Origin: Alistipes sp.
GTDB lineage: Bacteria; Bacillota; Clostridia; Oscillospirales; Ruminococcaceae
Direction of reading: 5' to 3'
Assembly (NCBI GenBank): GCA_023667265.1
Contig: JAMPAJ010000002.1
Location: 101,334-165,333 of the forward strand
Length of the DNA stretch: 64,000 nucleotides
In this document: positions 8,947 to 44,729 of the stretch, piece after piece
Position numbering within the stretch: the stretch's first letter is position 1
Layout: every line of letters begins with the position of its first letter
Notes under the pieces: model-generated
What the model was told of the DNA's origin: nothing
The model's input: only the letters and a program-made list of their open reading frames with translations
Database searches by the model: none
Position numbers and translations under genes: made by a program

Positions 8947-9435
8947 ATGTCAGACCGCGAAATCCGGAAAACTCTCGGAGTAATGGTTGAATGCGCAAAG
9001 CTGACACCCGAAATCTTCGCAAAAGCGATTGAAGATATGCTGAAAAACATCTCCGACAAAAATCCGCAAGGGAAAACAAGCCTTAACAAACTGATGAAAA
9101 CAGGCAAGGTTGACAGCATAGAGGTCAGCGACAGCAATATCGGCAGTTTTACACAGACTGCCAAAAAGTACGACCTTACATATGCCTTGAAGCGCGTTCA
9201 GGACGAGAACGGCAAAAAACAGTATCTTGTCTGTTTCCACGGCAAAGACTTAGAAACTATGCAGAAAGCGTTTAAGGAATATTCCTACAAGCAGACCCAT
9301 AAGAAAGAAACGCTTTTCAGCAGAAAGAAAATTGCTGAAATTCAGGTATCCGCTCCCGAACACGATAACGACCGCAGCAGAAGCAAGCAAAAGGAACACA
9401 AAAAAGAACGTTCCGACAAAAATATCAGTCTGTGA
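8947..9435 (+). CDS. PcfB/DUF3801 family conjugation accessory protein
   Basis: GKTSLNKLMK, SIEVSDSNIGSFTQTAKKYDLTYALK, YLVCFHGKDLETMQKAFKEY; immediately upstream of virD4. Confidence 0.8.
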   Translation: MSDREIRKTLGVMVECAKLTPEIFAKAIEDMLKNISDKNPQGKTSLNKLMKTGKVDSIEVSDSNIGSFTQTAKKYDLTYALKRVQDENGKKQYLVCFHGKDLETMQKAFKEYSYKQTHKKETLFSRKKIAEIQVSAPEHDNDRSRSKQKEHKKERSDKNISL

Positions 9436-9651
9436 GGTGAGCTGCAATGACTGATAAGAAAAAATTGGGAAAGTTCAGCTCCGCACACAAGAGAACAGAA
9501 AAAGATATTAAGTGGTATATTCGTTATCTTTATGTTGGCAAAGAGCCGAATTTAAAGCGTGTGGGCGGTTCAGGCAGCGGAAAAACAAGATTTTTTATAA
9601 AGCCAAATCTTATGCCGAAGAAGTGAGGTGAGCTGCAATGACTGATAAGAA
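9432..9651 (+). repeat. 29-bp direct repeat (9432-9460 and 9623-9651) duplicating the virD4 translation start
   Basis: GTGAGGTGAGCTGCAATGACTGATAAGAA present twice, exact. Confidence 0.9.
9447..9626 (+). CDS. 59-aa mini-ORF with the VirD4 start and Walker A segment
   Basis: MTDKKKLGKFSSAHKRTEKDIKWYIRYLYVGKEPNLKRVGGSGSGKTRFFIKPNLMPKK*; same RBS as virD4. Confidence 0.55.
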   Translation: MTDKKKLGKFSSAHKRTEKDIKWYIRYLYVGKEPNLKRVGGSGSGKTRFFIKPNLMPKK

Positions 9652-11476
9652 GAAAAAACCTCTTATTTCTCCCGACAGTATTCTCGGAAAAATGCTTGCG
9701 GACTTGAAAAAAGTTTTTAAGAGGAAAGCAAAGTTTGATAAAAAGACGGTTATCGGACTTTTGCCGCTGATTATTATCGCTTGGTTGGGAAATAAAATTT
9801 ACTGCGCTTACAGACTTAACGGTCTGACAATGGAAATGTTCACAGCGGTGAACGATATGTTTTCAAATCCCGTGCCGAGTTTCAATAAATCTGATTTACT
9901 GGCAGGACTTGTAGCGGCGGCAGCTTTCAAGCTGTTTCTGTATATCAAGAAGAAAAACAAGAAAAACTACCGAGATAAGGAAGAATACGGCTCTGCACGT
10001 TGGGGAACGGCAAAGGATATTGAACCGTATGTTGATACGGAAAATCCCCAAAACAATATAATCCTCACTCAGACCGAGAGCCTGACTATGAACGGCAGAG
10101 TGCCAAATCCGAAATATGCCCGAAATAAAAACATACTTATTGTGGGCGGTTCGGGCAGCGGCAAAACAAGATTTTTCGTAAAGCCTAACATTATGCAAAT
10201 GCACAGCAGCTATGTTGTTACCGACCCGAAAGGCACGATAGTTTTGGAGTGCGGAAAAATGCTCCAAAAAGCAGGATACCGCATAAAAGTCATAAATACG
10301 ATAAATATGGACAAGTCAATGCACTACAATCCTTTTGCCTATCTGCACGGTGAGGAAGATATTCTGAACCTTGCAAACACCATTATCACCAACACCAAAG
10401 GCGAGGGAGACAAAAGCGGCGAGGACTTTTGGGTAAAGGCTGAAAGACTGCTGTATGTTGCATTTATCGCCCTTATATATTACGAATTTCCCGAAGAAGA
10501 AAAGAATTTCGGTACGCTGTTATGGCTTATAAACCAGTGTGAAACACGGGAGGACGACGAAACGTTCAAGAACCGTGTTGACCTTACTTTTGAGCTGCTT
10601 GAAAAGAAAAAGGGCGAAGACCATTTCGCGGTAAGGCAGTACAAAAAATACAAACTTGCGGCAGGAAAGACCGCAAAATCTATCCTTATTTCGTGCGGCG
10701 CGAGACTTGCGCCGTTTGACATAGAAAAAGTCAGAAAAATGATGACTTACGACGAAATGGAACTTGATACGCTCGGAGACCCCGACCAAAAGACGGCTCT
10801 GTTCGTGATAGTTTCGGACACGTCGGCAACATTTAACTTTATTATTGCGATGTTGTACACACAGCTTTTCAATCTGCTCTGTACCGTCGCTGATGATAAA
10901 TACGGCGGCAGACTGCCTACGCACGTTCGCTGTCTGCTTGATGAGTTTGCGAACATCGGGCAAATCCCGAATTTTGACAAGCTCATAGCCACTATCAGAA
11001 GCCGTGAAATATCGGCAAGTATCATTTTGCAGTCCAAATCGCAGCTTAAAGCGATTTATAAAGATAACGCCGACACCATAATCGGCAACTGCGACACAGA
11101 ACTGTTTCTCGGCGGAAAGGAAAAGTCAACGCTCAAGGAGTTATCCGAAATTTTAGGTAAACAGACTATTGACCTTTTCACCACATCGGAAACAAGAGGA
11201 CAGTCGCAGTCATCGGGGACTAACTACAACAGAACAGGGAGGGAGCTGATGTCACAGGACGAAATCGCGGTAATGGACGGCGGCAAGTGCATTATGCAAA
11301 TCAGAGGAACGAGAGCTTTTTTCTCCGATAAATTTGACATTACAAAGCACGAACGCTACAAGGAATTATCGGATTTCGACCCTAAAAACACATTTGACAT
11401 AACGGGATATGTCAAAGCAAACGCTAAAATCAAGAAAAACGACGAAATAGAAATCATGTCCCGAATGGTTTTCTGA
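9638..11476 (+). CDS. virD4: Type IV coupling protein VirD4/TraG
   Basis: N-terminal TMs, YGSARWG, Walker A GGSGSGKT, LLDEFANIG, RSREIS..LQSKSQL. Confidence 0.95.
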   Translation: MTDKKKKPLISPDSILGKMLADLKKVFKRKAKFDKKTVIGLLPLIIIAWLGNKIYCAYRLNGLTMEMFTAVNDMFSNPVPSFNKSDLLAGLVAAAAFKLFLYIKKKNKKNYRDKEEYGSARWGTAKDIEPYVDTENPQNNIILTQTESLTMNGRVPNPKYARNKNILIVGGSGSGKTRFFVKPNIMQMHSSYVVTDPKGTIVLECGKMLQKAGYRIKVINTINMDKSMHYNPFAYLHGEEDILNLANTIITNTKGEGDKSGEDFWVKAERLLYVAFIALIYYEFPEEEKNFGTLLWLINQCETREDDETFKNRVDLTFELLEKKKGEDHFAVRQYKKYKLAAGKTAKSILISCGARLAPFDIEKVRKMMTYDEMELDTLGDPDQKTALFVIVSDTSATFNFIIAMLYTQLFNLLCTVADDKYGGRLPTHVRCLLDEFANIGQIPNFDKLIATIRSREISASIILQSKSQLKAIYKDNADTIIGNCDTELFLGGKEKSTLKELSEILGKQTIDLFTTSETRGQSQSSGTNYNRTGRELMSQDEIAVMDGGKCIMQIRGTRAFFSDKFDITKHERYKELSDFDPKNTFDITGYVKANAKIKKNDEIEIMSRMVF

Positions 11477-11507
11477 ACGTCAAAAAAATTTATGGAGGTA
11501 ATTTAAA

Positions 11508-11800: not shown

Positions 11801-12748
11801 GTGATTTATTTGGGCGTAGTAAGCGACGCAATTGACGGTATAAAGGACGGAATTGTAGACGCAATAGAAGAATTTATGCAAAAAACATTGGGCGGTATGA
11901 TTGAAACGGTTACCACCAATGCCGCCGGCTGCATGGAGGACGCAATTCTTGACGCAGGCAGCAAAGTTTCTGAAACTCCGAGCGGTTGGCTTAGCGGGGC
12001 AGTATCCGGACGTTCTCCGTATGAAATTCTTCAAAATGTTTCAAATACTGCAATTATGCCTGTTGCAATAGGCATAATGTCAATTATAATCTGCTATGAC
12101 CTGATTACAGCCTGTACCGACAAAAACAGTTTCAAAGATTTTGATACATCAATATTTTTCCGATTTATTGTTAAAGCGTGGGTAGCGATTTACTTTATGA
12201 ATAACTGCTTCACGATTTTTTCAGGAATATTTGACATTGGAGCGGCAATAGTTGGAAAAACAACAGCGATAATTACTTCAACGGACGTTTCAATAACAGA
12301 ACAATTAGCGACAGCTTTTTCGGGAAGTTGGTACAAAGATTTCTCTGTTGGAGACCTTGCCGGTTCGCTTTTGCTGTCACTGTTTACTTATGTGGCTTCG
12401 TTAGCCATATTTGTCATTATAACGGTCGTCACGGCGGGACGAATGATAGAAATAATGATTTACTTTTGTTCTGCCCCTATTCCGTTTGCAACAATGACCA
12501 ACAAGGAGTGGAGTCACGTCGGTTTTTCATTCTTGAAAACCCTGCTTGCCTTTGCGCTCCAATCATTTATCATAATTGTTATACTTGTTCTGTTTGAAGT
12601 CATTTTCAACGCAGAGGTTGTGTCCTCACTTGCAGGTTTGGAGACCCTTTCGGGAGCATTGTTGAAATGGTTAGGCTATGCTGTAGTATGCTGCTTTATG
12701 CTGTTAAAATCGGGAAGTATAGCAAAATCAATCTGCGGAACGCATTAA
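11801..12748 (+). CDS. VirB6-like conjugation membrane protein
   Basis: Multi-TM; GRMIEIMIYFCSAPIPFAT, LLKSGSIAKSI. Confidence 0.85.
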   Translation: MIYLGVVSDAIDGIKDGIVDAIEEFMQKTLGGMIETVTTNAAGCMEDAILDAGSKVSETPSGWLSGAVSGRSPYEILQNVSNTAIMPVAIGIMSIIICYDLITACTDKNSFKDFDTSIFFRFIVKAWVAIYFMNNCFTIFSGIFDIGAAIVGKTTAIITSTDVSITEQLATAFSGSWYKDFSVGDLAGSLLLSLFTYVASLAIFVIITVVTAGRMIEIMIYFCSAPIPFATMTNKEWSHVGFSFLKTLLAFALQSFIIIVILVLFEVIFNAEVVSSLAGLETLSGALLKWLGYAVVCCFMLLKSGSIAKSICGTH

Positions 12749-12760: not shown

Positions 12761-13150
12761 ATGGCTTTATATATGAAAATACCAAAAGATATGAACAATA
12801 TCAAGGACACGGTAATGTTCAAAATGACAAAACGGCAGCTCATTTTCAACGCTATTGGCTTAGCATTGGGTTTTACAGTATTTTGGCTGACATACAAATC
12901 TCTTGGAACAAGCACGGCAGGAATTTTTCTGTTTTGTCTCGGAGGTCCTTTCTTCATAATGGGAATATATGAAAAAAACGGATTTACGCTTGAAAAAATC
13001 CTGCTGAACTTTATACGGTACAAGCTATGTCCGCAGATACGACCGTATAAGACGGAAAATATTTATCGCAAAATCGCGGAAGAAATTGAATATAAGAAAG
13101 AGGTGGAAATGCTTGAAACAGGCAGAAAAAAAGTCAAACTCAAAAACTAA
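12761..13150 (+). CDS. prgI: PrgI family protein (VirB3-like)
   Basis: IPKDMNNIKDTVMFKMTKRQLI, two TMs, YEKNGFTLEK. Confidence 0.85.
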   Translation: MALYMKIPKDMNNIKDTVMFKMTKRQLIFNAIGLALGFTVFWLTYKSLGTSTAGIFLFCLGGPFFIMGIYEKNGFTLEKILLNFIRYKLCPQIRPYKTENIYRKIAEEIEYKKEVEMLETGRKKVKLKN

Positions 13151-15605
13151 GACTAAAACCGTGCCGCTTTCAAAAGCGGAATATGAAACCGTAAAGCAAA
13201 GCGTTTCGGCAAAGGAAAAGCAGCGAAACGCTGTCAAGCTGCCGCAAACTTCACAGCAGTCTATACCATTTGACTATATGACCAAAGACGGCATCGCAGT
13301 GTCGAGCGAACCTGAAAAATTCTCGCTTATGGCTTTTCTGTTCGGCAAAAAGAAGCCTGTGGAAACACGGTACAGCAAAACGGTACAGTTTTACGACGTT
13401 GACTATGAAATAGCGGAGGTTTCAAAACAGCAGAATATTTTCGCTAAATATTGCAGTCTGCTGAACTGCTTTGACAGCAGCGTGAAATTTCAGATTTCAG
13501 TTGTAAACGTTACAAACGACAATGATTTTGAGGACATAATAGAGCTGCCGGAACGTGACGATGATTTCAACGATATTCGCAAGGAATACTGTGATATGCT
13601 CCGTGAGAAACTTGCAAAGGGCAATAACGGCTTTATCCGAGTGAATTATATAACCTTTTCCATAACGGAAAAAAACATCAATAAGGCTCGTCAGCAGCTT
13701 ACGGGAATTGAAAAGGACGTTATTCGTGCGTTTAAATCGTTCGGTGTGGCGGCTGTTCCGCTGAACGGCGAGGAAAGACTGTTTGCAATGTACAAAATGC
13801 TTCATCAGTATTCTGACGACCCGTTTCTGTGCGATTTTGACAGTATGCCGGAAGCCGGATATATGCCAAAGGACTATATTGCTCCGTCCTCGCTCAATTT
13901 TTCCAAAAAGAACGAGTTTAAGTGCGGAAACTTCTGCGGTTCTACATTTTCTATCAATTTGCTTGCTTCGGAAGTATCGGACAGGTTTCTTTCAGACCTT
14001 ATGGATACTGAAAATCCCATAGCGTTTAATATGCACTTCACGGCAGTAGACAACCTTGAAGCCAAAAAATTCGTCAAGCTGAAATTATCAAACGTTGAAA
14101 AAATGAAAGTTGACGAACAGAAAAAGGCGGCGCAGCAAGGCTATGATATGGACATTCTTCCTCCCGACATGAAAACATACATAAACGAGCTTAACATTAT
14201 GCTTGACGATTTGGAGAACAAGAACGAGAGAATGTTTCTTGTAACTATTCTTGTAACCAATTTTGCTAAAAGCGGAAAAATGCTGAGCGTATGCAACGAC
14301 AGGCTGAACCGTATTGTTTTACAGGCTAATTCACAGCTCATTCCTCTTGATTACAGGCAGGATTTGGGACTGGCTTCAATTCTTCCTCTTGCGGAAAACA
14401 GAATTGAAATAGAACGCCGCCTGACTACAAGCTCTGCGGCAATATTTCTCCCGTTTGCCACAAAAGAAATTTTTATAGGCGGTGAAGCCGTTTATTACGG
14501 TCTTAATCAGATTTCCGACAATATGATTATGGCTGACAGAAAACAGCTTGACAATCCCAACGGTATCGTGTTGGGTGTTCCAGGCGGCGGTAAATCGTTT
14601 CAGGTTAAATGCGAAATAGCTCCGGTGTTTCTGTTCACAGACGATGATATTATGATTTGCGACCCCGAAGATGAGTATCATCCGCTTGTCAAGGAATTTC
14701 ACGGTCAGGTTATTGAAATTTCAAGCGACAGCTCGGACTATATCAATCCTATGGATATTGACCGGAACAGCGGTGAGGAAGATATTATCGGTGTAAAATC
14801 GGAATTTATCATCTCTCTTTGCGAGCTTGTAGCAGGAGGGAAATACGGACTTGACCCGCAGGAAATTTCAATTATTGACCGCTGTGTAAGAAATCTGTAC
14901 ATAAATTTTTTCACGGCAATGGAAAAAGCAACCGATGAGGAATTTAATGCAAATATGCCGATTTTAGGCGATTTGCAGGTAGCTCTTTTAGAGACAGGGG
15001 AGGAATACGCAAAACGTGTTGCAAATGCCCTTGAAATTTACGTTACGGGTTCTTTAAATATCTTCAATCACCATACAAACGTTGATTTGAATAACCGTAT
15101 TGTCTGCTATAACATCAAAAAGCTGAAAAATACCCTTAGAAAACTTGGTATGCTGATAGTACAAGACCAAGTATGGAACAAGGTTTCAATGAACAGAGGT
15201 GAAAAATCCACATGGTACTATATGGACGAATTTCACTTGCTGCTCAAAGAAGAACAGACCGCAAAATATTCAGTTGAGATGTGGAAACGTTTCAGAAAAT
15301 GGGGCGGTATTCCTACCGGACTTACGCAGAACGTAAACGATTTTCTTTCTTCAAAAGAAGTTGAGTCCATTTTCGACAATTCGCAGTTTGTCATAATGCT
15401 GAAACAGGCAGTCGGAGACGTTGACGTACTTGCACAGAAATTAAAAATTTCTCCCTCACAGCAGAAATATATTGAAAGCACTGTGCAGAGGGGCAGCGGT
15501 CTTATTTACTATGGCGGAAGTATTCTGCCGTTCAATAATCAGTTCCCGACTGATACAAAGCTGTACAGACTTATGACAACCAAACCGCAGGAAAGTATGA
15601 TTTGA
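13086..15605 (+). CDS. virB4: VirB4-like conjugation ATPase
   Basis: Walker A GVPGGGKS, YMDEFHLLL, RFRKWGGIPTGLTQN. Exact start uncertain. Confidence 0.93.
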   Translation: MNIRKRWKCLKQAEKKSNSKTKTKTVPLSKAEYETVKQSVSAKEKQRNAVKLPQTSQQSIPFDYMTKDGIAVSSEPEKFSLMAFLFGKKKPVETRYSKTVQFYDVDYEIAEVSKQQNIFAKYCSLLNCFDSSVKFQISVVNVTNDNDFEDIIELPERDDDFNDIRKEYCDMLREKLAKGNNGFIRVNYITFSITEKNINKARQQLTGIEKDVIRAFKSFGVAAVPLNGEERLFAMYKMLHQYSDDPFLCDFDSMPEAGYMPKDYIAPSSLNFSKKNEFKCGNFCGSTFSINLLASEVSDRFLSDLMDTENPIAFNMHFTAVDNLEAKKFVKLKLSNVEKMKVDEQKKAAQQGYDMDILPPDMKTYINELNIMLDDLENKNERMFLVTILVTNFAKSGKMLSVCNDRLNRIVLQANSQLIPLDYRQDLGLASILPLAENRIEIERRLTTSSAAIFLPFATKEIFIGGEAVYYGLNQISDNMIMADRKQLDNPNGIVLGVPGGGKSFQVKCEIAPVFLFTDDDIMICDPEDEYHPLVKEFHGQVIEISSDSSDYINPMDIDRNSGEEDIIGVKSEFIISLCELVAGGKYGLDPQEISIIDRCVRNLYINFFTAMEKATDEEFNANMPILGDLQVALLETGEEYAKRVANALEIYVTGSLNIFNHHTNVDLNNRIVCYNIKKLKNTLRKLGMLIVQDQVWNKVSMNRGEKSTWYYMDEFHLLLKEEQTAKYSVEMWKRFRKWGGIPTGLTQNVNDFLSSKEVESIFDNSQFVIMLKQAVGDVDVLAQKLKISPSQQKYIESTVQRGSGLIYYGGSILPFNNQFPTDTKLYRLMTTKPQESMI

Positions 15606-15606: not shown

Positions 15607-18600
15607 GTGAGTTATGTGAGCAGTCGTGACGAACAGCTAAAAGCATTGGAAGCTGCCGTAAAAAGTGCGGAAAGCAAGCTGAAATCGGCAGAAATGACGG
15701 TAAAAGATGTTGAGGGCAAAATAAAGTCGGCTGACGAAGCCTTTGAACAAAAACTTGCCGAAAAAGCAGCAGGATACAAAGAACAGACCGGAGCTGATTT
15801 CAGCCGTACAGTTGACGAAAACGGCAGAGTTACTTATTCTTTCAGCCGTGAAAAAGCTGAAAATGAGCGCAAGAACAGCCGTAATCTGACAATAAAGCGG
15901 TATTTTGACAGCGAAACGGGAAAAGTCCGGCACAAGGTTGAGCTTGCCGAAAACGACAGTCAGACCGTAGCTGTAAATTCGGCAAAAGACCTTAAAAAAC
16001 CGAAAAACAGGAAAAGGTATATTGCATATAACCTGTTCGGCTATCGGAAATTGGAGTTAAGTAATACATTCCTTGATACAGTCGGAAAGCCGTTAATCGT
16101 CCCTATTCAGACTGCTGCACGTCTTGCTGAAAAAGTCAGGGAAACACCTGTCGGCAAAGGTGCTTCGGGTGCTGCAAAAATTGTTTCTGCTCCTATCGTT
16201 ATTCCTGCAAAAATAATCAAGGAAATTGCCGATAAAGGCGGAGTAATTCACGCTGTTACAGACTTGGGCAGTAAAATTAAAATTGAGGGATATAACGTTC
16301 CGAAACCTTTAGCAACAGGACTGCACGCCGTTTCAGCCACGGCAAAGGGAGCTGAAACTGCTGCGGTCGGCACGGCAAAAGGCTTGGGAAAATTCTCAAT
16401 TGAGATTGCCAAAGAGCAGCTTTATCAGAAAATCAATGAGGGAATTGCCGAAAACGAGGGAACACAGGCGGCTTATGTTATCGGTGTCAGAGTTATTGAC
16501 GTTTACAAGGTTCTCCACGAACATGCAAAATTTAAGCGCGCTGTAAGGAGAGACAAGGCAGGAAACGATATTACTGATGTAAATGTTTCCCGTTATCTTG
16601 CGGAAAAGGAAGAAAAGAAGTTCGGCAAAAATAAGGATAAATTGGAAGCGGAAAAAGCAGCGGCTGATTATTCGGCTGACGGTGCAAGGAAAGAGTATGA
16701 AGCGGCAAAGGCAAGACTTGACAAATATTGTAAAGAACACGGCATTTCTGTTTCAGAAGTTCCGAAAGCTCCCACATCAGAAGCTGTTTCTGAAAAGCCA
16801 AAACTTACCAAAACCGAAAAGAAAATTGAAAAGACCAAACTCAAGTTAAAATCTGTTCAGAAACATAAATACAGGCTTAAAAGGCAAAAAGTCTTTGACG
16901 AAAGAAAAGGAGAAGTCGTTACAAAGACAATACTTGCAAGGGTAGAAGTTACCGGAACAAAGCCAATGACAGCTTTGCAGACAGGTAAAAAGCTCGGAGG
17001 ACTGGCTGTTCGTGATACTGCTATGAGTATGCGCCGAAAGGCAATGAGAGACGGCGGCGATAATGCAGGAGTTGAAGCCGCTAATTTTGCTATCACTGCT
17101 TATCAACAGACAAGTCGAGCCGCTAAAACCTTGAATGAAAAGGGACGGCAATGGTCGGAACGCTTTTATGAACGAAAGCTGCAAAAGCTGAACAACGCGA
17201 AAAAACTTGAAGAACAGACAATTCCAAAGAGCAAAGCATATGAAAAAAATCCGACGGATAAAAAAAGAAAAAAGAAATCCGGAAATCAGAAGCATATGCA
17301 GAAAAAGAGAACTCAGAGGAAAGTCTACAACCGCAGAAAAAAGGAAAGAGAAGTCTTTAAAAACATTATTAACGATGTCAAAGGTTTTGTTTTCAAGCAA
17401 ATAAAGGGCGCAGGAATTGTAATTGGCGGAATAGTGGCTATTGTTATTCTGCCTATGCTGTTTCTCACAATGTGCGGCGGAGGTGGCGGTCTTGCTTCAT
17501 CAGGTGTATTTACAAGTCCGCTTGATTTATACGATATTGGTTCTATTGACCTTTATTACACGGAACTTGCAAAAGATATGATTGATGTTCATCAGAATAT
17601 TGAAAACTATTATGTTGATTATGACAAGTATGTCTGTCTAACAGAAATAAACGAAATCAGTCATTCGCCGACTAAGCTTCTGCCGTATATTATGGCTGAT
17701 ACTGATTTCCAATTAAACGACGTTATAATTGACGAAGCGGCGGACGTTCGGATAATGGAAAGCGCAAAATCAAAGGTCAAATCAATTTTCAACGCGCAGT
17801 ATGAATTTTATGCAAATGAAATTCACGAGGTGAGAAAGGACGTAAAAACCGTCACATATTCAAACGAGGACAGTTACTATTCACTGTTTGGTACGTCTGA
17901 ATATAACCTTGAAAGACCGGAGGGTTTTGATATTCCAGACCCGCTTAAATCGTCCGGATACACAGGATATGCAAATACTTATGTGCACGTTGAAGTACCG
18001 ATTATCAACGGCTATATTATCAATACGATTGACAATATAGGCAGATATACGGACATAAACGGAAATACTACAGAATATGACGATATGCGGACAATGACGT
18101 TCTATAACTATTGGCAGATAACTCTTGTGTTTGATTATATGGAGGACGGCGAATATCAGGAATACTGGAAATATACCGAACAGCGGCAGGAGTATTTTGA
18201 ATATGACTATTATACCCTTGAATACGCTATCAGGGAAAGGCAAATCGACGTTCCCGAAAGTTACTGGTCTGATACGGACGAAAACTGGCAGGACAATAAT
18301 TTTAACAGGCTGATTTACAATTTGGTGTCAGATATGGACGGAAATGAACAGGCATTTTTCTATGGGTATCTTGCGTTTAATATGGGACGGCAAATATTCA
18401 AAAGTCCTTTTCCGGATGCTCAGATAGCAAAATATTCAGGGTACAACACTGATATTTACGGTGATATGTCGCTTGAAAACAGCATTATTTTCTATTCTTC
18501 TCCAGGGCAGGAAATAGTATGCGGTACTGACGGAGAAATTACTGTAACAGATAACGGATTTTCGATATATAACAAAAAATATGGAACGCTCTACTATGAG

Positions 18601-18735
18601 GGAGCGACTGCTCCAAATGTGCAGACCGGTACTAAAGGCACAGTCGTTTCTACTGCAACAGGCGATACGCTGAAAGTAACTTATATTGACAAAAATGGAA
18701 ATTATGTCAATCCGCTGTTTGCTTTCACTAATTAA
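15607..18735 (+). CDS. CD1108-like large conjugation protein with a degenerate M23-like C-terminal domain
   Basis: Basic coiled-coil N-terminus and one TM; C-terminus FKSPF...GQEIVCGTDGEITV...KNGNYVNPL matches M23 architecture but lacks the catalytic His residues. VirB1 position in the operon. Confidence 0.7.
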   Translation: MSYVSSRDEQLKALEAAVKSAESKLKSAEMTVKDVEGKIKSADEAFEQKLAEKAAGYKEQTGADFSRTVDENGRVTYSFSREKAENERKNSRNLTIKRYFDSETGKVRHKVELAENDSQTVAVNSAKDLKKPKNRKRYIAYNLFGYRKLELSNTFLDTVGKPLIVPIQTAARLAEKVRETPVGKGASGAAKIVSAPIVIPAKIIKEIADKGGVIHAVTDLGSKIKIEGYNVPKPLATGLHAVSATAKGAETAAVGTAKGLGKFSIEIAKEQLYQKINEGIAENEGTQAAYVIGVRVIDVYKVLHEHAKFKRAVRRDKAGNDITDVNVSRYLAEKEEKKFGKNKDKLEAEKAAADYSADGARKEYEAAKARLDKYCKEHGISVSEVPKAPTSEAVSEKPKLTKTEKKIEKTKLKLKSVQKHKYRLKRQKVFDERKGEVVTKTILARVEVTGTKPMTALQTGKKLGGLAVRDTAMSMRRKAMRDGGDNAGVEAANFAITAYQQTSRAAKTLNEKGRQWSERFYERKLQKLNNAKKLEEQTIPKSKAYEKNPTDKKRKKKSGNQKHMQKKRTQRKVYNRRKKEREVFKNIINDVKGFVFKQIKGAGIVIGGIVAIVILPMLFLTMCGGGGGLASSGVFTSPLDLYDIGSIDLYYTELAKDMIDVHQNIENYYVDYDKYVCLTEINEISHSPTKLLPYIMADTDFQLNDVIIDEAADVRIMESAKSKVKSIFNAQYEFYANEIHEVRKDVKTVTYSNEDSYYSLFGTSEYNLERPEGFDIPDPLKSSGYTGYANTYVHVEVPIINGYIINTIDNIGRYTDINGNTTEYDDMRTMTFYNYWQITLVFDYMEDGEYQEYWKYTEQRQEYFEYDYYTLEYAIRERQIDVPESYWSDTDENWQDNNFNRLIYNLVSDMDGNEQAFFYGYLAFNMGRQIFKSPFPDAQIAKYSGYNTDIYGDMSLENSIIFYSSPGQEIVCGTDGEITVTDNGFSIYNKKYGTLYYEGATAPNVQTGTKGTVVSTATGDTLKVTYIDKNGNYVNPLFAFTN

Positions 18736-18756
18736 TTGAAAGGAGATTTAATTACA

Positions 18757-20168: not shown

Positions 20169-20226
20169 TGAAAAATCCGTCCCGTTTTTAGTCGGGACGG
20201 ATAAAATTTTGAAAGGATTTGATTGT

Positions 20227-22855: not shown

Positions 22856-22871
22856 TCAGAAAAGAATAAGG

Positions 22872-23125: not shown

Positions 23126-23147
23126 TTATAAAGGAGGATAGTATATA

Positions 23148-36400: not shown

Positions 36401-39400
36401 TTGATTATATGCAGGACTTGACAGGCTTTGAGAAAGAAAAAATAGTTTCCGATTTGCACGGTGACATATACCCTGTTCCCGAACTTTCCACGGAAGATAA
36501 TACCGTATATCAGACAAGCGATGAGTATTTATCGGGAAATATCTATAAAAAAATAGCTATGGCGGAAGCAAAAATATCGGAAAATCCTGCCTATGCGGAA
36601 AATGTGGCGGCTCTGACGGAAGTAATACCGAAACCGCTGAAAGCCACGGAAATAGATATGCAGCTCGGTATGACTTGGATTGACACGAAAATCATTCAGC
36701 AGTTTATGTATGAAACTTTTGAAACTCCGCAGCGTTTCAAGGAATATGACGGAGATGTTCCGCAGGAAAATCCCTCCGCTATAACCGTTCACTATTCGGG
36801 CGCAGGAAAAGGCTCTTGGAAAGTTGAAAACGCATGTCTTGACAATTCCGTGAAGTCTACGAAAAATTTCGGTACAAAGGATTTGAACGCTTATGAACTG
36901 CTTGAAAAAATCCTTAACGCTAAATCGGTCGCGGTAACGCAAACCGTAAGAGATGAGGAGGGCAGACAAAAGACCGTAATTCTTGAAAAGCAGACAAAGG
37001 CAGCGGAGGATAAAGTCAAGCAGATAAACGCCGCTTTCAAAAAATGGATTTTTGCAGACCCCGAAAGGCGCAATGAGCTTGTAAAGACGTACAATGAAAA
37101 ATTCAACGGCATACGTCCCCGTGAATACGACGGCAGCAATCTTAATTTCTTCGGTTCAAATCCCGAAATAACGCTGAAACCGCATCAGAAAAATGCTGTG
37201 GCGCACGCGCTTTTCGGCGGCAATACGCTGTTCGCACATCAGGTCGGCGCAGGAAAAACCTTTGAGATGATAGCCACGGCAATGGAGGGAAAACGTCTCG
37301 GACTGCACAATAAGAGTATGTTTGTCGTTCCAAATCATCTGACGGAACAGATAGGCTCTGACTTTATGAAGCTGTACCCTAACGCTAATATTCTTGTGGC
37401 AAAGCCGGACGATTTTTCTCCGCAGAAGCGCAGACAGATGTGCGCAAGAATTGCAACGGGAAATTTCGACGCGGTAATTATAGGACATTCACAGCTTATA
37501 AAAATTCCGCTTTCCGCGAAGCGTGAAGAAGAATTTATACGCAAGCAGATAAACGAGGTTGTATCAGCTCTTGAAGCTGCCGAGGAAACCGACAGCAAAA
37601 GCTACACGGTAAAGCAGCTCGAAGCAACAAGAAAAAATCTCCGTGAACGTCTTGAAAAGCTGACCAACGGCACGGTCAAGGACAATGCGGTCACATTCGA
37701 GGAGCTTGGTGTGGATAAGCTGTTTGTAGACGAGGCTCACGAGTTTAAAAACCTCTATGTTTCCACAAAAATGGAGAACGTTTCGGGACTTTCCACTAAT
37801 GCCGACGTTCAGAAAACGCAGGATTTGTATATGAAATGTCAGTATCTTGACGAAAAAACAGGCAGCAAAGGTATTGTTTTCAGTACGGGAACGCCTGTGA
37901 CCAACGCTCTCTCGGAAATGTACACCACAATGAAATATTTGCAGTCCGATTTGCTGAAAGAAACAGGTCTTGACAGTTTCGATGCGTGGGCAGGAAATTT
38001 TACAAGAAAATCCACCGAAGCGGAAATCTCGCCCAGCGGCAGCGACTGGAGAATGAAAACACGTTTGAAATTCACCAACGTTCCCGAACTTGTCACTATG
38101 TTCAAAGAATGCGCCGATGTGAAAATGGCAGACCAACTCAATCTCGATGTGCCTGAATGCGAAAAGCACATTGTTTCGGTTGAGCCGACAGAAGCGCAAA
38201 AATCAGTTGTACAGTCCCTTGCGGTAAGAGCTGAAGCTATCAGCAAGGGAGAGGTTTCAAGAACAGAGGATAATATGCTTGTTGTAACAGGTGACGGAAG
38301 AAAGCTCGGTCTTGACCAACGGCTTTATGACCTTAATCTGCCCGACGAACCGCAGACAAAGTTAAACGCTTGTATTCAGAACGTTTTTGACATATGGGAA
38401 AATACGTCCGAAAAGAAGTCAACGCAGCTTGTTTTCTGTGATTTGGGTGTGCCGCAGTCCAAAGAAGATTTGAAAAAGAACGGAGAACGGTTTGACGTTT
38501 ATTCCGATATTCGTTCAAAGCTGATAGAAAAAGGCATACCCGAAAAGGAAATAGCCTTTATCCACGAAGCCAACAGCGAAACGGAAAAGGCGAAACTGTT
38601 TGCAAAAGTCCGCAGCGGAGACGTTCGTGTGCTTATCGGTTCAACGCAGAAAATGGGCGCAGGAACTAATGTGCAGGACAAACTTGTCGCACTTCACGAC
38701 CTTGACTGCCCTTGGAGACCCGCCGACCTAACGCAGCGTTTGGGACGTATGGTTAGACAGGGCAACGAAAACAAGAAAGTAGACAATTTCAGATATGTTA
38801 CCAAAGGCACGTTCGACGCATATCTGTACCAAATGGTAGAAAAAAAACAGGAAAGCATTTCGCAGATTTTCACGTCAAAGGCTATTGCGCGAACCTGTGA
38901 CGATATTGACGATATGGCGGTTGACCTTATGCAAGTCAAAATGGCTGCCGTGGGAGACGACCGTATCAGGCGGCAAATGGAGCTTAGAGAGGATATTCGC
39001 AGTCTGAATATGCTGAAAAATACATATCTTGAAAATAAATACGAAATTGAGGACAACATAAAAAGGCTGCCGTCCAAAATTGCCAACACGGAAAAAATAA
39101 TCGAGGGAATTGCCGCCGACACCAAAACGGTAAAAGGATATGTTCCCAAAAAGGATATTGACGGTCAGGAAGTTTTTGAAATGAAAGTCGGAAACACCTT
39201 GTACGTTGATAAAAAAGAAGCGGCGGAAGCTCTCAAAGCTGCTATGACAAGTGCTGTTATGGGAAATCCGAAAGCGCAAACGGATATAGCCGAATACAAA
39301 GGCTTCAAAATAGCCGTTTCCTATGACGGCTTCGCAAAATCTTACAAAGGACATCTTAAAGGCGAAAACATTTATTCCTTTGATTTTGGCAGCAGCGAAA

Positions 39401-40071
39401 GCGGAAATCTCACGAGAATAGATAACGCGATAGCTTCTGTTCCTATGCGTATAGATAAAGTCTGCAACGAGCTTGAACGTATGAAAACTGAGCTTGCCGA
39501 CAGCATAAAGGAAGCCGATATGCCGTTTGAGCATGAAGCGGAGCTTGAGGAAAAGAAACAGGAGCTTGAACGTCTGACTGACGAGATAAACGCCGATAAG
39601 GTAAAAGGTGAGATTGCGCCGGAACAGCCGGAAAGCACGGGAAAATCCTCAGAAAAGCCGGAAAAACAGGTGCAGACCGAAAAAGTTGATAATCTCAACA
39701 TCAAATGGCGGCAGAACGACAAGGAGCTTCGCATAACCTATGACAGAACCGCCGACAGCAAGATTACCGCATATTCGGACGGAAAAGAAATAGGGCATTG
39801 CTCCCCCGACGAGCTGACGGTCACTAAAATCAGCGGGAGCGAACAGAAAAAATATCCCGACGGAATAACAAAGTGCGTCGAACCTTTAAACCTTGCGTTC
39901 AGCAGTAAAATGGCTATGCACATCAATAACTTTGCCGAAAGGGTGAAAGAAGCGGAAAAGTCCGTTTCAAGGGACGATAAGGCACTTTTCTCCCGTGACA
40001 GGATTATGAGCGATGATTTCAAGCCAACCTCGGAAAAGTCAGCCGATACTCCCAAATCTCAGTCGCTTTAA
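30451..40071 (+). CDS. 3206-aa DarB-like protein: ArdC-like N-terminus, N6-adenine MTase and SNF2-type helicase
   Basis: LEPSMGVGNF, GNVPF, HQVGAGKT, FVDEAHEFKN, GTPVTN, MGAGTNVQ, QRLGRMVRQGN. Confidence 0.9.
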   Translation: MEMPNNKVSEAQAIYIGEIRRVQETAEKWRDFLDFAAQAQISENQSEFEFSSKLIIHARNPNAKDCRPFGEWKTEDGNHVSRLERGIPVLSRDSRGNQSVTYLFDTSQTALKKEPERIEIPEEMRENLKSALSGIIKDFSDNTSLSDVQKRIFAETAEYKLCKQYGLETAENPERFSGIEKLSVKEIANIGVALNRCSNSFAETVKNERSNFNERGNNSQSRDDRTELYGQERRGVDLGQGVSGTRDEVRLRREHERMEQTQRGEHDIRTADRNSAAEADSGNGQVRQYETEIHMADPVPVGDTSHGQSGEALRGNERESSEPDREHSGEEKAVGGIQGDRGNGEIPAESADTGEVQSRSGGGNTSRDGLRDITEETAEPEKVSAVSVSENEQSDPFENFKRSKDGDIILGNTTFRYIPEKTYTQIDKDIAVEVSEQLEKQGIKFSGVIKGDTATITVSKPQKETLDRIIADISSPNKDIAAEESIDTPELTDKEKAFLDGETAPLMAKDVLAWDEIEDIGYRLYEKGYIDRHAPSEKAIYGNGLNEPVLYDMAKRMQNGEDIGKELSLALLGNQRTFDINIFDEFNVEYGSDFITAKFGNAEKQVSYEELENAFFKLFKDEYDDIVHGRTVEDLRDIFPDITGETADNLINAFDGAIMHGWQDNEVVQRKIKKALYNILGDKENTEKAFSSIADMKYNVKISNIGFFSLGNGVTVCDTSRMDKETNDYVKVAHISPEGVLTMYDNSVSQQDMASIRQQVNTVRDEFVRNWNSMSRTQQFEMLLDRADITTQVNISKDSISMEEKIEKYMPYVFFKKGERPEPQTAEQNNIKNIEFIGERDSFEAVKAAARTQSFGTTVTDGNRLSIVMYDNADVDEVRKLLETAQENNVFETVETAKMLEDKFGAVFSYNSQNNPTVADLSAGDVILYEGKRREVEKISENSISLKDLDAPDFGGILLGTSDVLAYKGWQEDMNEKGFEILSKAKTYSEITRDMYQTENPDIFTVKGKGSFAKIDITVNAELWERLAEKGLVRNENSVDRVIFNIDNKEWNKLVIPDKWGNMTNNINIEDVFTSEELQTAKSVADFVIGNEDIQQVLDNFNEDITPVENNTSFSEEISGSNGTVKYKVTENADEQYKYNVQIFTQGENGEFYYSGLGRFCETLDEAHAFIENDIAERTAAKDRQHSDKDEITGNDEYNISQGQMSLFDDIPDIEEIPNERNYQVVTYSRDLGADDKKIFSTLDEAVESGRGYLYDKEHEGYYSGIAILNTKEQKVEYYEGDFPLEGIFSEQVYQNSGNWQRAEPIPNLLFDKFDEHYNEMYKNHDEVNGYDEAVAVGDKFIRENPDIMERIANSRNDVITSDREAAALAFALADVGMIDKFVEPEQSKQQKVQQNLVTSVHTEQSPLNPERVTVTHSEAAKVPDIDVEKPEEKKTNNLFRITDEHLGEGGKKEKFRNNIEAIKTLQILEAEERAATPEEQETLSKYIGWGGLQEAFDNSLSAWDTEYRELKNLLSEEEYEAARSTVNDAFYTSPVITQAIYEGLANIGFNGGEVLEPSMGVGNFFGTMPDKMRENSNLSGIEIDSISGRIAKKLYPEADIAINGYENIKLTKGSFDLAVGNVPFGNHGVNDKTKAYKGLLIHDYFFAKSLDSVRSGGIVAFVTSTGTLDKDDTKVRQMLAQKAELLGAVRLPNNAFQKNAGTQTATDIIFLKKREKPLNISEMPMDKSCEWVHTKENADGLKINSYFADNPEMVLGELSDKGRFGSIICTPVQGADLKEQLHEAMKNIKGEYVPLEFQQELDERAENNYLTATPDIENLTYTVVDDKLYFRVDDNLIPLKESEQHGVTADRRKGLCDLGLTVRELLKAQVEDRPDKEIKLLQAELNVKYDKFVQKFGRINPTETPNSRNASGVTRKAPNSNVFKNDVRLPLLQSLEKMKEGQFVGKTEIFTERTIRPRKVAEHVETAHEALILSISEKGKIDFDYMQDLTGFEKEKIVSDLHGDIYPVPELSTEDNTVYQTSDEYLSGNIYKKIAMAEAKISENPAYAENVAALTEVIPKPLKATEIDMQLGMTWIDTKIIQQFMYETFETPQRFKEYDGDVPQENPSAITVHYSGAGKGSWKVENACLDNSVKSTKNFGTKDLNAYELLEKILNAKSVAVTQTVRDEEGRQKTVILEKQTKAAEDKVKQINAAFKKWIFADPERRNELVKTYNEKFNGIRPREYDGSNLNFFGSNPEITLKPHQKNAVAHALFGGNTLFAHQVGAGKTFEMIATAMEGKRLGLHNKSMFVVPNHLTEQIGSDFMKLYPNANILVAKPDDFSPQKRRQMCARIATGNFDAVIIGHSQLIKIPLSAKREEEFIRKQINEVVSALEAAEETDSKSYTVKQLEATRKNLRERLEKLTNGTVKDNAVTFEELGVDKLFVDEAHEFKNLYVSTKMENVSGLSTNADVQKTQDLYMKCQYLDEKTGSKGIVFSTGTPVTNALSEMYTTMKYLQSDLLKETGLDSFDAWAGNFTRKSTEAEISPSGSDWRMKTRLKFTNVPELVTMFKECADVKMADQLNLDVPECEKHIVSVEPTEAQKSVVQSLAVRAEAISKGEVSRTEDNMLVVTGDGRKLGLDQRLYDLNLPDEPQTKLNACIQNVFDIWENTSEKKSTQLVFCDLGVPQSKEDLKKNGERFDVYSDIRSKLIEKGIPEKEIAFIHEANSETEKAKLFAKVRSGDVRVLIGSTQKMGAGTNVQDKLVALHDLDCPWRPADLTQRLGRMVRQGNENKKVDNFRYVTKGTFDAYLYQMVEKKQESISQIFTSKAIARTCDDIDDMAVDLMQVKMAAVGDDRIRRQMELREDIRSLNMLKNTYLENKYEIEDNIKRLPSKIANTEKIIEGIAADTKTVKGYVPKKDIDGQEVFEMKVGNTLYVDKKEAAEALKAAMTSAVMGNPKAQTDIAEYKGFKIAVSYDGFAKSYKGHLKGENIYSFDFGSSESGNLTRIDNAIASVPMRIDKVCNELERMKTELADSIKEADMPFEHEAELEEKKQELERLTDEINADKVKGEIAPEQPESTGKSSEKPEKQVQTEKVDNLNIKWRQNDKELRITYDRTADSKITAYSDGKEIGHCSPDELTVTKISGSEQKKYPDGITKCVEPLNLAFSSKMAMHINNFAERVKEAEKSVSRDDKALFSRDRIMSDDFKPTSEKSADTPKSQSL
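31088..31570 (+). CDS. TnpV-like protein nested in the +1 frame of the giant helicase gene
   Basis: RBS GAAAGGAG before the ATG; MGKYGSMRLKF..LLEILL..HCEEMNE..YRAEAEEEIL..VYAI matches the TnpV pattern. Confidence 0.72.
   Translation: MSEVTTVNQEMIGQNYTDRNGVEWIWDKEYREHVMKYVYDENMNEWSKLNEENMTYEPLIEIPQPKPTAAMGKYGSMRLKFIWQTPCLLEILLTDNQVKHCEEMNEKVLNLIENIVEKKKQSEEYKAIEETGKFLPKVQILERYRAEAEEEILPVTVYAI
34683..34701. repeat. ICE palindrome copy 8 (intragenic)
   Basis: ACGTGTCAC-G-GTGACACAC within the helicase gene (encodes RVTVTH in a linker). Confidence 0.85.
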
Positions 40072-43259: not shown

Positions 43260-43275
43260 ACTAAAAATCAAATCG

Positions 43276-43318
43276 AAATCTCCCTCTATAAGCACTTGCC
43301 TATAGAGGGAGATTTTTT
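43276..43318. terminator. Bidirectional terminator between convergent ICE blocks
   Basis: AAATCTCCCTCTATA/TATAGAGGGAGATTT perfect stem with A/T tracts on both sides. Confidence 0.85.
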
Positions 43319-43319
43319 A

Positions 43320-44729
43320 TTATAACTCCAAATCATTCTTTTTATCCAAACCAACATTCTTGTCCTTACTTCTCGTAGGAGCATACTTGTCAGAACTGAT
43401 TTCGGCAACCGAAAATAAAGGCTCTTTTTCCTGTTCGTCTTTCTTTTCAGGAGCAGAGGGAATAGTAGGTTGAGCTGCCTTGCGTTCATGCTTGACAGAC
43501 GGCTTTTTTACTTGTTCCGCAGCTCGCTTTTTCTTGTCGAGCATTGAAGCAGCCTTTTTCAGTATGTCCTTAATATCGGAGAAAAAATTATATACTTTGC
43601 TTTCGGCAGTGTGCGTACCCCTTTCAATTTTGGACTTAGCCTTAGTCAGAGCTTGCGGTGTTTCAATCGAGATGATAGGCTTAAGCGACATAGTTCCGTC
43701 CTCGTTTTGAGTTTCTTTCGTAAGAGTGATTTTTGACGATAATTTAGCATTTGGCACTTTCTCACGCTTCTCAATTTCCGCATTGACGGCTTTTATTTCA
43801 TTCAGAATAAGGTCTTTAACATCGCTGTTATGTGGGTCTTGCGCTTGAGCTGCAAGTCTTTCTGCGGCATTTTTAAGCATATCGGAATTGTAAATAGTTC
43901 TGTTGCTGAATACCGACAGTTTCCTCTCATAGGCTTTCTGAGCGGCTTCTGAACGTGTTTCCGCATACTTTGTCCTCTTGCTTCTAAGCTGCTTTAAATC
44001 GGCTTTAATGGTCGCATATTCGGAATTATTCAGTATTTTTTCATTCAGCCGCCGACGTTCCTCTGCCGGAATTTCTATAATACATCTGTCAACATTGTTT
44101 ACCTTGTCATGTTCAACAAATGAAACTATTGTGATTTCGGGAACACTTCTGCGCCCGTCATTGTTGTATGTCCTGTCGGTAGGAAACTGTGATATTCCGT
44201 GAGCAACTTTAGGATTATTTTTATCAAGCCTGAAAAAAGCATATATTCTTTCATCGGGAGTTTTCTTGTTTTCAGGTTCAAATACAAGCATAAAATCAGC
44301 TGCGATTTCGGAATTATACGGACGTTGGCTTCTATGACAGTCCAAGTTCCACGAATACGCTTTTACATTACCGCTGTTCAGAACCTCGCGGAAATTCGCA
44401 AATGTATCTATTCTGTCATCGAGGGTATATGTCACGCTGTTCTTTTGAGGGTCGTTGAGCGGAACATTCCACGATGAGCTGCTGCAAGCAGTTTGATATG
44501 TAACGGTATTGTCCATTATATTATCATATAATCTGCTGCTGCTTATATCAGAAAATGGAGGTAAATCAGTCAGTTTCTCTAAACCTGCTAAGTGCATAAA
44601 TCCGCTGTTGTCAAAGCCGATAGTTGTATTGATAATTGTTCCGTTATTGTGCAAACATATTTTGTATTCATAATTTCCAAGTTCTGCATATGAATTTGCA
44701 CACTGATATAATTTGTCATTATTCTCCAT
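43320..44729 (-). CDS. PBECR4-like (Barnase/EndoU/colicin/RelE superfamily) nuclease with a long C-terminal tail
   Basis: LYQCANSYAELGNYEYKI..FDNSGFMHLAGLEKL, IAADFML, SQFP; charged tail ending EPLFSVAEISSDKYAPT..DLEL. Confidence 0.7.
   Translation of the reverse strand: MENNDKLYQCANSYAELGNYEYKICLHNNGTIINTTIGFDNSGFMHLAGLEKLTDLPPFSDISSSRLYDNIMDNTVTYQTACSSSSWNVPLNDPQKNSVTYTLDDRIDTFANFREVLNSGNVKAYSWNLDCHRSQRPYNSEIAADFMLVFEPENKKTPDERIYAFFRLDKNNPKVAHGISQFPTDRTYNNDGRRSVPEITIVSFVEHDKVNNVDRCIIEIPAEERRRLNEKILNNSEYATIKADLKQLRSKRTKYAETRSEAAQKAYERKLSVFSNRTIYNSDMLKNAAERLAAQAQDPHNSDVKDLILNEIKAVNAEIEKREKVPNAKLSSKITLTKETQNEDGTMSLKPIISIETPQALTKAKSKIERGTHTAESKVYNFFSDIKDILKKAASMLDKKKRAAEQVKKPSVKHERKAAQPTIPSAPEKKDEQEKEPLFSVAEISSDKYAPTRSKDKNVGLDKKNDLEL

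Follow-up and report, generated by a model that had tools for sequence, protein, structure and literature searches.

A shared C-terminal tail on unrelated proteins of a Tn1549-family conjugative element is a candidate docking signal for its type IV secretion system

Introduction

Why should a small PcfB protein, a primase-like protein, a giant methylase-helicase and a predicted RNase, all encoded by one mobile element, end in much the same way? The question is raised by a 64,000-nucleotide stretch of DNA (contig JAMPAJ010000002.1 of assembly GCA_023667265.1, positions 101,334 to 165,333 of the forward strand, deposited as Alistipes sp. and placed in the Ruminococcaceae by GTDB), which was analysed as a whole and is referred to below as the window. 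The element at ~7.6-57.4 kb of the window is an integrative and conjugative element (ICE) of the Tn1549 family, which includes the vanB transposon Tn1549 as well as abundant ICEs of the human-gut and rumen microbiota. [quoted passage not shown]

The substrates of T4SSs include conjugative primases (RP4 TraC, ColIb Sog), ArdC and relaxases, and recognition often goes by C-terminal signals. For the polyvalent proteins of Tn1549-like elements, Iyer, Burroughs, Anand, de Souza and Aravind predicted in 2017 that they travel with the DNA; in the parts of that article reached by a term search, no passage on a shared C-terminal tail or recognition signal was found (PMC5512222). A T4SS review from 2025 mentions neither PcfB nor a Gram-positive translocation signal and lists effector export by Gram-positive T4SSs as an open question (PMC12857230). 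Within the literature searched, whose coverage stops short of subscription journals, the shared tail is not described. The answer developed here is that the tail, judged by its sequence and distribution, probably serves as a docking or translocation signal for the T4SS of the ICE.

Results

Four unrelated proteins share a C-terminal core

The four genes and their tails are as follows (main open reading frames, ORFs, were annotated by Pfam).
8947-9435, plus strand: pcfB (DUF3801, 162 aa; Pfam DUF3801 E 1e-23, 84 bits against a cut-off of 24.1); tail at nt 9304-9435, plus strand, KETLFSRKKIAEIQVSAPEHDNDRSRSKQKEHKKERSDKNISL and stop, LFS 40 residues before the stop
27490-30363, plus strand: toprim/DUF3991 primase-like protein (957 aa; Pfam); tail at nt 30247-30363, plus strand, DEPLFSRSKIMGDDFKPTSEKSQEDKEKSKNKNNHIGL and stop, LFS 35 residues before the stop
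30451-40071, plus strand: giant polyvalent protein (3206 aa) with Eco57I-like N6-methylase and SNF2/ResIII helicase (Pfam); tail at nt 39976-40071, plus strand, DKALFSRDRIMSDDFKPTSEKSADTPKSQSL and stop, LFS 28 residues before the stop
43320-44729, minus strand: PBECR4 predicted RNase (469 aa; Pfam PBECR4 E 8e-15); tail at nt 43320-43427, minus strand, KEPLFSVAEISSDKYAPTRSKDKNVGLDKKNDLEL and stop, LFS 32 residues before the stop

All four C-termini stand in the sequence exactly as the earlier note had quoted them, and their core can be written as [PAT][LM]FS[RKVI]xx[IV]xSDx[FY]xP[TK]SxK (hereafter the LFS tail). In the toprim protein, a DUF4316 motif (aa 882-918) lies immediately N-terminal of it. 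A hidden Markov model (HMM) of the four tails matched these four alone among 721 six-frame ORFs of the window, with E values of 1e-14 to 1e-20 and the next at 1.6. When the C-terminal 45-mers of 39 ICE proteins were locally aligned all against all, pairs of the four tails took ranks 2-6 of 741, rank 1 being a true DNA repeat. The scores of the toprim-giant (93) and toprim-PBECR4 (66) pairs were above all 100 shuffles (maximum 56), whereas those of PcfB-toprim (50) and giant-PBECR4 (48) lay inside the extreme of the shuffled distribution. Once the tails were removed, no mutual similarity was detectable among the four proteins (all E > 0.6), in agreement with the claim that they are otherwise non-homologous.

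The toprim, giant and PBECR4 tails are statistically robust, and an HMM from which the PBECR4 rows had been left out still recovered the PBECR4 tail (leave-one-family-out, E 4e-6 to 8e-6). The claim of a motif common to all four proteins stands firmly for these three; PcfB is marginal, its alignment to the other tails being confined to LFSRxxI plus the charged end. Within PcfB itself, "ETLFS[RK]KK[IV]" and "KKERS" are kept in 81 homologues of 53-100% identity. A terminal Leu had also been listed as common to the tails, but it proved dispensable: giant orthologues end in ...QQEH or ...AQSK, and tail-bearing relaxases (described below) in ...GQGR or ...EAL.

Selection acts on the protein

In the core, 16 of 19 residues are identical between the toprim and giant proteins, seven of them by different codons, and of the eight residues that toprim and PBECR4 have in common, seven are again encoded differently. 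Such codon differences at identical residues point to selection on the protein and not to a repeat in the DNA. A repeat finder detected no DNA repeat at the tails, and with the differing codons this ruled out a DNA-level repeat as the source of the shared tails. Among orthologues (13 toprim, 10 giant and 6 PBECR4), the core forms a conservation island, with 8-9/10 per column, after a linker at 0-3/10, and the tail is under purifying selection. In an AlphaFold 2 model of PcfB (31 close homologues), residues 119-162 are without confident structure, which carries little weight because the entire model is poor (mean predicted local distance difference test score, pLDDT, of 49).

The tail is found on many carriers, all of them in mobile elements

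The four-tail profile was searched against 1.84 billion representative proteins, and 22 of the 24 matches at E <= 1e-3 were judged to be real. Each of the 22 lies at an extreme C-terminus, with the match ending within ~12 aa of the last residue and LFS 28-40 aa from the end; each belongs to a mobile-element family, and none is a housekeeping protein. The earlier note had named an equal frequency in non-mobile proteins as an outcome that would count against a secretion signal, and the motif proved not to be common on such proteins.

By blastp and Pfam, the carriers comprise relatives of the toprim, giant, PBECR4 and PcfB proteins, a 466-aa protein that consists of the N-terminal ~200 residues of the giant protein plus the tail, an acidic protein of ~330-436 aa encoded directly after the toprim gene in some ICEs, and a 169-aa protein. 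The LFS tail is present on at least seven carrier architectures, and the carrier set differs among related ICEs. This matches the hallmark of T4SS C-terminal signals, i.e., a position in the last ~50 residues and portability among unrelated proteins. The proposed effector set is not a defined one, being open-ended and variable between related ICEs. PcfB may be an adaptor or escort instead of an effector.

Pattern scans with a seven-tail alignment, biased toward the IMSD[DE]FKP type, found 16 loci among GTDB genomes and a further 29, which carry no taxon, among metagenomes. The named genome loci are mostly from Ruminococcus, Oscillospiraceae or Clostridia of gut and rumen samples, and two are in Bacteroidota-labelled bins (Alistipes, Paludibacteraceae); the nearest genome match is a metagenome-assembled genome of Ruminococcus flavefaciens, and the host of the ICE is close to this species. 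The same scan gave zero loci in 2.9 million viral contigs, and PBECR4 had no match in the phage collection. Searches of PLSDB plasmids by tblastn with the LFS tails, and with those of the second dialect described below, returned nothing or the self match, in part owing to the limited sensitivity of 38-40-aa queries. Taken over these collections, the tail appears to be specific to conjugative or mobilizable elements.

Relaxases of mobilizable plasmids carry the core

Two of the genome loci (L012 and L016) are small plasmid-like contigs and not ICEs. They encode a Rep_3 initiator, a YafQ toxin, DUF3847 and a MobA_MobL relaxase (Pfam E 1e-81), and T4SS genes were not found among the ORFs scanned with Pfam, a subset of all ORFs. 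On contigs of this type the relaxase has the LFS core and ends ...KAVLDKPLFSKDKVMSDEFKPRS... A search with the tail-bearing relaxase gave 120 relatives, of which one subclade (about 20 distinct sequences) has the core. Sister clades with 52-58% identity have the flanks ...SKLYEAVKRVK and ...NY.SYGGRSR (before the stop) in common, and the linkers between them are unrelated. The ~20-residue core is therefore a cassette placed in a pre-existing disordered C-terminal linker. Neither the Lys-rich spacer nor the terminal Leu is required.

The tail is thus present on a bona fide T4SS substrate. The relaxase is the protein that every conjugative T4SS must recognise, and a mobilizable plasmid relies on the coupling protein of its helper element. 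We regard the tail on these relaxases as the strongest single argument for docking to the T4SS.

Other features of relaxase C-termini were observed alongside. Nearly all relatives of the L016 relaxase (L016: 7678-9582) end in a basic Gly/Ser/Arg motif, with or without the LFS cassette (...SYGGRSR, ...SSGFSRGR and ...KGHIGR, each before the stop), which may be a second, family-wide C-terminal signal. The ICE's own relaxase (52477-53838, minus strand) ends in ...QQRKKSNGELE, resembling the distal tail ends ...KKNDLEL and ...KSKGLEVE; the Tn1549 relaxase ends in ...TQEL and the Tn1549 Cys-rich VLP protein in ...THLEL. The distal element alone might matter.

A second dialect covaries with PcfB

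A different tail was found in Tn1549 and in one ICE each of Monoglobus and Vescimonas; it consists of KPSIRxQL, a Lys-rich stretch and an end in LEL or LEV (the PSIR dialect). In Tn1549 (L017/L018), it is present on PcfB (...QRPSIRKVLSAVKQK...RGLEL), on a 1306-aa ArdA/ArdC-N/YodL polyvalent protein (...EKPSIRAQLNAAK...KGLEVE) and on a 314-aa protein (...PRPSIRKQLSDSK...NELEV), each ending there. The bearers in the Monoglobus ICE are PcfB, a 1108-aa ArdA polyvalent protein and a 317-aa protein, and those in the Vescimonas ICE are PcfB, a DUF3849/ArdC-N protein, a MutS_I-like protein and ArdA. In the all-versus-all C-terminal test, the PSIR pairs came top in each of the three elements, with only true paralogues or insertion sequence copies scoring higher.

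When PcfB orthologues were aligned, TLFSRKKI of the window PcfB shared its columns with RPSIRKVL, right behind the conserved AFKE[YF]S with which DUF3801 ends; the two dialects are therefore positional homologues. PcfB, although a weak member by sequence, would by position be the ancestral bearer. Among 2281 ORFs, an HMM of the PSIR cargo found PSIR-lineage PcfBs (E 6.5e-4 and 6e-3) and not the window PcfB, whereas an HMM of the LFS cargo found the window PcfB and no PSIR-lineage PcfB. Each PcfB tail hence appears to match the dialect of the cargo of its own ICE, and LFS-type PcfBs are indicated on the same contigs as two further LFS loci (L001 and L002). The hosts of the PSIR dialect are Enterococcus, Monoglobus and Oscillospiraceae; the dialect follows the lineage of the ICE and not the host taxon. 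This suggests a co-evolving partner encoded by the ICE and speaks against a hub that is conserved in hosts, for instance the sliding clamp or a protease. As part of the explanation that fits best, we think it likely that LFS is the Ruminococcus-lineage dialect of a signal found throughout the Tn1549 family.

Two extensions of this pattern were rejected. A third dialect in pCF10 (PcfB "TFDERL" against PcfD "KFEERL") gave no outlier pair in the all-versus-all test. Tails as a general feature of relaxases were ruled out by the MobQ relaxase in the Pusillibacter ICE (L021), which lacks a PSIR tail.

The coupling protein as a candidate receptor

Two genes for VirD4-type proteins are present in the window.
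9638-11476, plus strand: VirD4-type coupling protein (T4CP, 612 aa; Pfam T4SS-DNA_transf E 2e-58, TraG-D_C E 3e-38)
23468-24736: second, shorter VirD4-like gene (422 aa; Pfam)

The gene pcfB lies immediately upstream of virD4 in the window, Tn1549, L019, L020 and pCF10, and in L019 the two genes overlap. The window VirD4 ends with the lineage-specific sequence ...KKNDEIEIMSRMVF, which is kept in another ICE of the LFS lineage (L055). In this lineage (window and L055), the last ~20 VirD4 residues are hydrophobic, ending in KK(N/D)DEIEI(M/I)SRM(V/I)(F/Y), with a net charge of +1/+2; VirD4 of the PSIR lineage has an acidic extension instead, with a net charge of -5/-7. The tails themselves have a mean net charge of +1 in the LFS dialect (range -1 to +3) and of +5 in the Lys-rich PSIR dialect (range +3 to +8). 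This charge complementarity, seen in two lineages, suggests that the C-terminus of the coupling protein may be part of the receptor. VirD4, alone or together with PcfB, is the most likely candidate, as far as gene order and sequence allow us to infer.

The second VirD4-like gene was ruled out as the receptor, since it is absent from the closest relative (L001) and from L003 and L004, all of which bear tails. With a partial copy in L002 and none in these three, the gene is accessory or decaying. Its T4SS-DNA_transf match starts at aa 35 at profile position 42, and the N-terminal part of the 612-aa VirD4 is missing.

Further observations concern the virD4 region. A 56-nt direct repeat (88%; 9560-9615 and 10141-10196) places a second copy of the virD4 Walker-A segment (GGSGSGKT) between pcfB and virD4; this spacer copy reads ...KRVGGSGSGKTRFFIKPNLMPKK before a stop. 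At the equivalent position in L055 (10493-10678), a 61-aa gene with "GGSGCGK" is called. The spacer repeat resembles either a mini-ORF that has been conserved or what is left of a duplication of the virD4 5' end. In Pusillibacter pMM59_01 (L021: 10596-12417), a module with DUF3847 and the MobQ relaxase, together with TnpV and a serine recombinase, stands between pcfB and the remaining conjugation module; it splits virD4 and is an integrated mobilizable element within the ICE. In the Tn1549 copy of L017, virD4 carries a group II intron.

Organisation of the ICE and its flanks

Assignment to the Tn1549 family is based on backbone synteny, established by gene-wise tblastn against Tn1549, L019, L020 and L021 together with Pfam. 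The backbone scored comprised Rep/HTH, PcfB, VirD4, VirB6, PrgI, VirB4, the hydrolase, DUF4315, CD1107 and topoisomerase III, followed by variable cargo, then MobC with a MOBP-type relaxase, and a recombinase. The order of the channel genes is identical to that of Tn1549 and its relatives; Tn1549 has a tyrosine integrase and the ICE in the window a serine recombinase. The remaining features, annotated by Pfam except where a line says otherwise, are listed below.
7851-8945: HTH_36 initiator-like gene
11801-12748, plus strand: VirB6/TrbL_2
12761-13150, plus strand: PrgI
13086-15605, plus strand: VirB4-like ATPase
15607-18735, plus strand: 1042-aa protein, placed by position, in the place of the Tn1549 cell-wall hydrolase
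18736-19041, plus strand: DUF4315
19038-19820, plus strand: CD1107-like
20209-22551: topoisomerase III
Between the second VirD4-like gene and the toprim gene: C5 methylase
Between the giant gene and PBECR4: sigma factor, DUF4367
47663-49600, minus strand: ParB-radical SAM fusion
50149-50928: ParA
After ParA, before the relaxase: DUF5348
52477-53838, minus strand: the ICE's own relaxase (MobA/VirD2-like)
53840-54223, minus strand: MobC/NikA accessory protein
55692-57377, plus strand: large serine recombinase, right end of the ICE
4607-6967 and 58173-60530: dockerin-bearing host genes on either side of the ICE

In the giant protein, the Eco57I-like methylase occupies aa 1576-1688 and ResIII/SNF2/Helicase_C aa 2240-2771, which fits the polyvalent methylase-helicase dyad of Iyer et al. 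(2017). The host flanks (1-7000 and 58173-62015) encode an ABC exporter with a C39 peptidase, an ABC ATPase and also two proteins with dockerins, of which one has BspA-type leucine-rich repeats, a gene set that fits a cellulosome-producing Ruminococcus host.

Several repeats were noted elsewhere in the ICE. The ParB-radical SAM gene, which adjoins ParA, is an unusual fusion of a radical-SAM-like N-terminal region (weak Pfam match, E 2e-4) with ParB_N and a ParB helix-turn-helix. Its last 29 codons are duplicated as the 3' end of a 100-aa ORF (22548-22850), the C-terminal peptides being identical (...FAIDKSEKELDELAEKLLTEYFESVSR), as part of a 121-nt inverted repeat (88% complementary; 22734-22854 and 47659-47779). 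A 122-nt direct repeat (22744-22865 and 23014-23135, 72%) adjoins the inverted repeat, which could be a scar left by recombination or could serve as a substrate for inversion within the ICE. The palindrome GTGTGTCACGGTGACACAC, followed by a ribosome-binding site, occurs at 27435-27493, 46729-46768 and 47258-47311, directly upstream of three genes, namely the toprim gene and two on the minus strand that start near 46768 and 47304. It could act as an operator common to them, as a hairpin or as a promoter-like element in single-stranded form.

Discussion

The motif is modular, always C-terminal, under purifying selection, restricted to mobile elements and present on relaxases, and its dialect covaries with PcfB. 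In the reading we favour, it would be a short linear signal, set in a disordered region at the C-terminus, by which its bearer docks to the T4SS of the ICE, with the VirD4 coupling protein, alone or together with PcfB, as its receptor. The functional unit would be the ~20-residue core, some ~30-40 residues from the C-terminus, with the charged spacer and the last residue free to vary. Proteins that act in the recipient would pass the mating channel with or ahead of the transferred strand; here, the passengers would be the primase-like toprim protein, the PBECR4 nuclease and the methylase-helicase, which may protect the DNA on its arrival. What we infer from this pattern is that the tail binds VirD4 and that its bearers are carried into recipients. 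Mobilizable plasmids, by placing the core in the C-terminal linker of their relaxases, may have gained the use of the same coupling protein, and the LFS tail would be one dialect of a family-wide Tn1549-type signal (KPSIRxQL), which is also borne by PcfB.

Several observations weigh against this reading. The ICE's own relaxase is without the tail, as judged with the tail HMM and by checking its C-terminus, as is MobC with respect to the LFS tail; the Tn1549 relaxase and the MobQ relaxase in a PSIR-lineage ICE also lack it. The tail is therefore not a universal ticket for this T4SS. In pCF10, the best-studied relative, the all-versus-all C-terminal test showed no shared tail. The PcfB tail is marginal, with E 0.02-0.06 in an HMM built without the PcfB rows, although it was the best non-member. 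The correlation between tails and the VirD4 C-terminus comes from two lineages only and is phylogenetically confounded, and across the dialect lineages the main VirD4 keeps 59-74% identity in spite of strongly different tails. Unlike the classical VirB/D4 signals, the LFS dialect lacks both a basic character and an Arg motif, and the low-confidence model of PcfB lends no structural support to disorder of the tail.

The main rival, unlikely but clearly ahead of the others, is that the tail is a donor-side assembly motif. It would bind a partner within the ICE, e.g., the DUF3801 domain of PcfB, the relaxosome or the coupling protein, and gather enzymes at the transfer site or on the transferred strand without any crossing into the recipient. 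This would account equally well for a modular tail that covaries with PcfB and is confined to ICEs, and it would suit a PcfB that bears the ancestral tail and whose translation is linked to that of virD4. However, a primase, anti-restriction proteins (ArdA, ArdC-N) and a methylase-helicase are needed in the recipient, as is established and as PMC5512222 also indicates, and a tail-bearing relaxase is transported by definition. A role in turnover seems improbable to us. As a degron or stability tag, the tail would send potentially toxic ICE proteins (nuclease, methylase-helicase, primase) to a host protease, or to turnover controlled by the ICE, and keep them scarce outside mating. The tail is an exposed C-terminal element and often has an aliphatic last residue, as do some ClpXP tags, and PBECR4 is one of several carriers that could plausibly be toxins. 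Against this, the dialects follow the ICE lineage and not the taxonomy of the host, although host proteases are conserved; what is conserved is the internal 20-aa core and not the last residues, and a mobilizable plasmid has no obvious gain from a degron on its relaxase.

Docking to the host replisome, which we rate a shade lower still, would have the tail bind the beta sliding clamp, the single-stranded DNA-binding protein or a similar hub and so tie the enzymes to the copying of the strand that enters. Every carrier acts on nucleic acids, and "..PLFS" is loosely like the LF dipeptide of the clamp-binding motif QL[SD]LF, a penta- or hexapeptide that has Gln first and a hydrophobic pair at positions 4-5. 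The tails do not conform to that motif, as they have no Gln and a conserved stretch of 20 aa instead of 5-6; in addition, the homologous PSIR dialect is without LF, the dialect follows the ICE and not the host, and PcfB and PBECR4 are not replisome enzymes. The possibility that the likeness arose by chance among low-complexity charged tails, or is a DNA repeat or recombination scar without function in the protein, can be regarded as effectively refuted. K, E, D and S are abundant in the tails, and two of the pairs score within the extreme of the shuffles; the strongest pairs, however, score above all of them, the HMM E values are 1e-14 to 1e-20, and the synonymous differences, the conservation island and the lack of a DNA repeat at the tails all speak against it.

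Docking to the T4SS can be put in a more specific form, which we advance tentatively and hold to be somewhat more doubtful than the general reading. In Tn1549-superfamily ICEs of gut Firmicutes, the tail would be a C-terminal "zip code" in lineage dialects (LFSRxxIxSDxFxPTS, or KPSIRxQL plus a Lys-rich end). It would mark PcfB and exchangeable anti-defence and establishment proteins for export by a monoderm T4SS, co-evolve with the C-terminal extension of VirD4 and have been copied onto the relaxases of mobilizable plasmids. If this is true, it would be the first defined protein translocation signal of Gram-positive conjugation, and conjugative effector repertoires could be read directly from sequence; one could then predict the ICE proteins that are injected and the ICE lineage on which a mobilizable plasmid travels. 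It would also give PcfB and parts of DUF4316 a function. A searchable motif would make substrate choice by Gram-positive T4SSs directly testable.

Comparison with known systems

Two Pfam families touch the tail. Positions 38-43 of the DUF4316 profile (PF14195) cover the PSIR core "SSIMDRLKS" in the Vescimonas ArdA protein; unlike the tail, the family is mostly an upstream "E..NY..IDGIINN.P" motif and has no separate portable tail module. In the window only the toprim protein matches it (34.4 bits, aa 882-918, profile 1-37/43), the match ending before LFS, and the Pfam scan gave no DUF4316 match in PcfB, the giant protein or PBECR4. DUF4316 is not mentioned in the literature searched. As for DUF3801/PcfB (PF12687), its profile gives, in the C-terminal part, a weak match (E 0.0018) to an ArdA polyvalent protein's tail, and the match in the window PcfB (aa 25-143) spans LFS; this model, too, has no separate portable tail module.

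C-terminal modules on diverse effectors of one T4SS are also known from the Xanthomonas T4SS toxins (XVIPCD) and the Bartonella Beps (BID plus a charged tail). Those are folded domains of ~100-140 aa, whereas the motif described here is linear, ~20-35 aa long and without sequence similarity to them. For XVIPCD, binding to VirD4 has been reported (PMC8740702). C-terminal signals are well established for Gram-negative T4SSs, with the Arg-rich tails of Agrobacterium VirE2, VirF and VirD5, RSF1010 MobA and the E-block/hydrophobic signals of Legionella Dot/Icm as examples. They, too, are short, apparently unstructured and placed in the last ~30-50 residues; they are found on unrelated substrates of one system, including relaxases, primases and anti-restriction proteins, and a VirD4-type protein is their presumed receptor. 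Their sequences are unrelated to the LFS tail, which has a ~20-aa hydrophobic/acidic core and a mean charge of +1 and belongs to a monoderm (Firmicute) conjugation machine, a type for which the reviews consulted mention no signal of this kind. The Agrobacterium signal (R-x7-R-x-R-x-R) is not matched by the LFS tails, which have charges of -1 to +3 and no such Arg pattern.

There is also agreement with the polyvalent proteins of Iyer et al. (PMC5512222). The giant methylase-SNF2 helicase, PBECR4 and the ArdA/ArdC-N/YodL carriers all belong to the classes that were predicted to be delivered. The tail differs from that scheme in reaching further, since it is also borne by proteins that are not polyvalent, namely PcfB, the toprim protein and the MOBQ relaxases.

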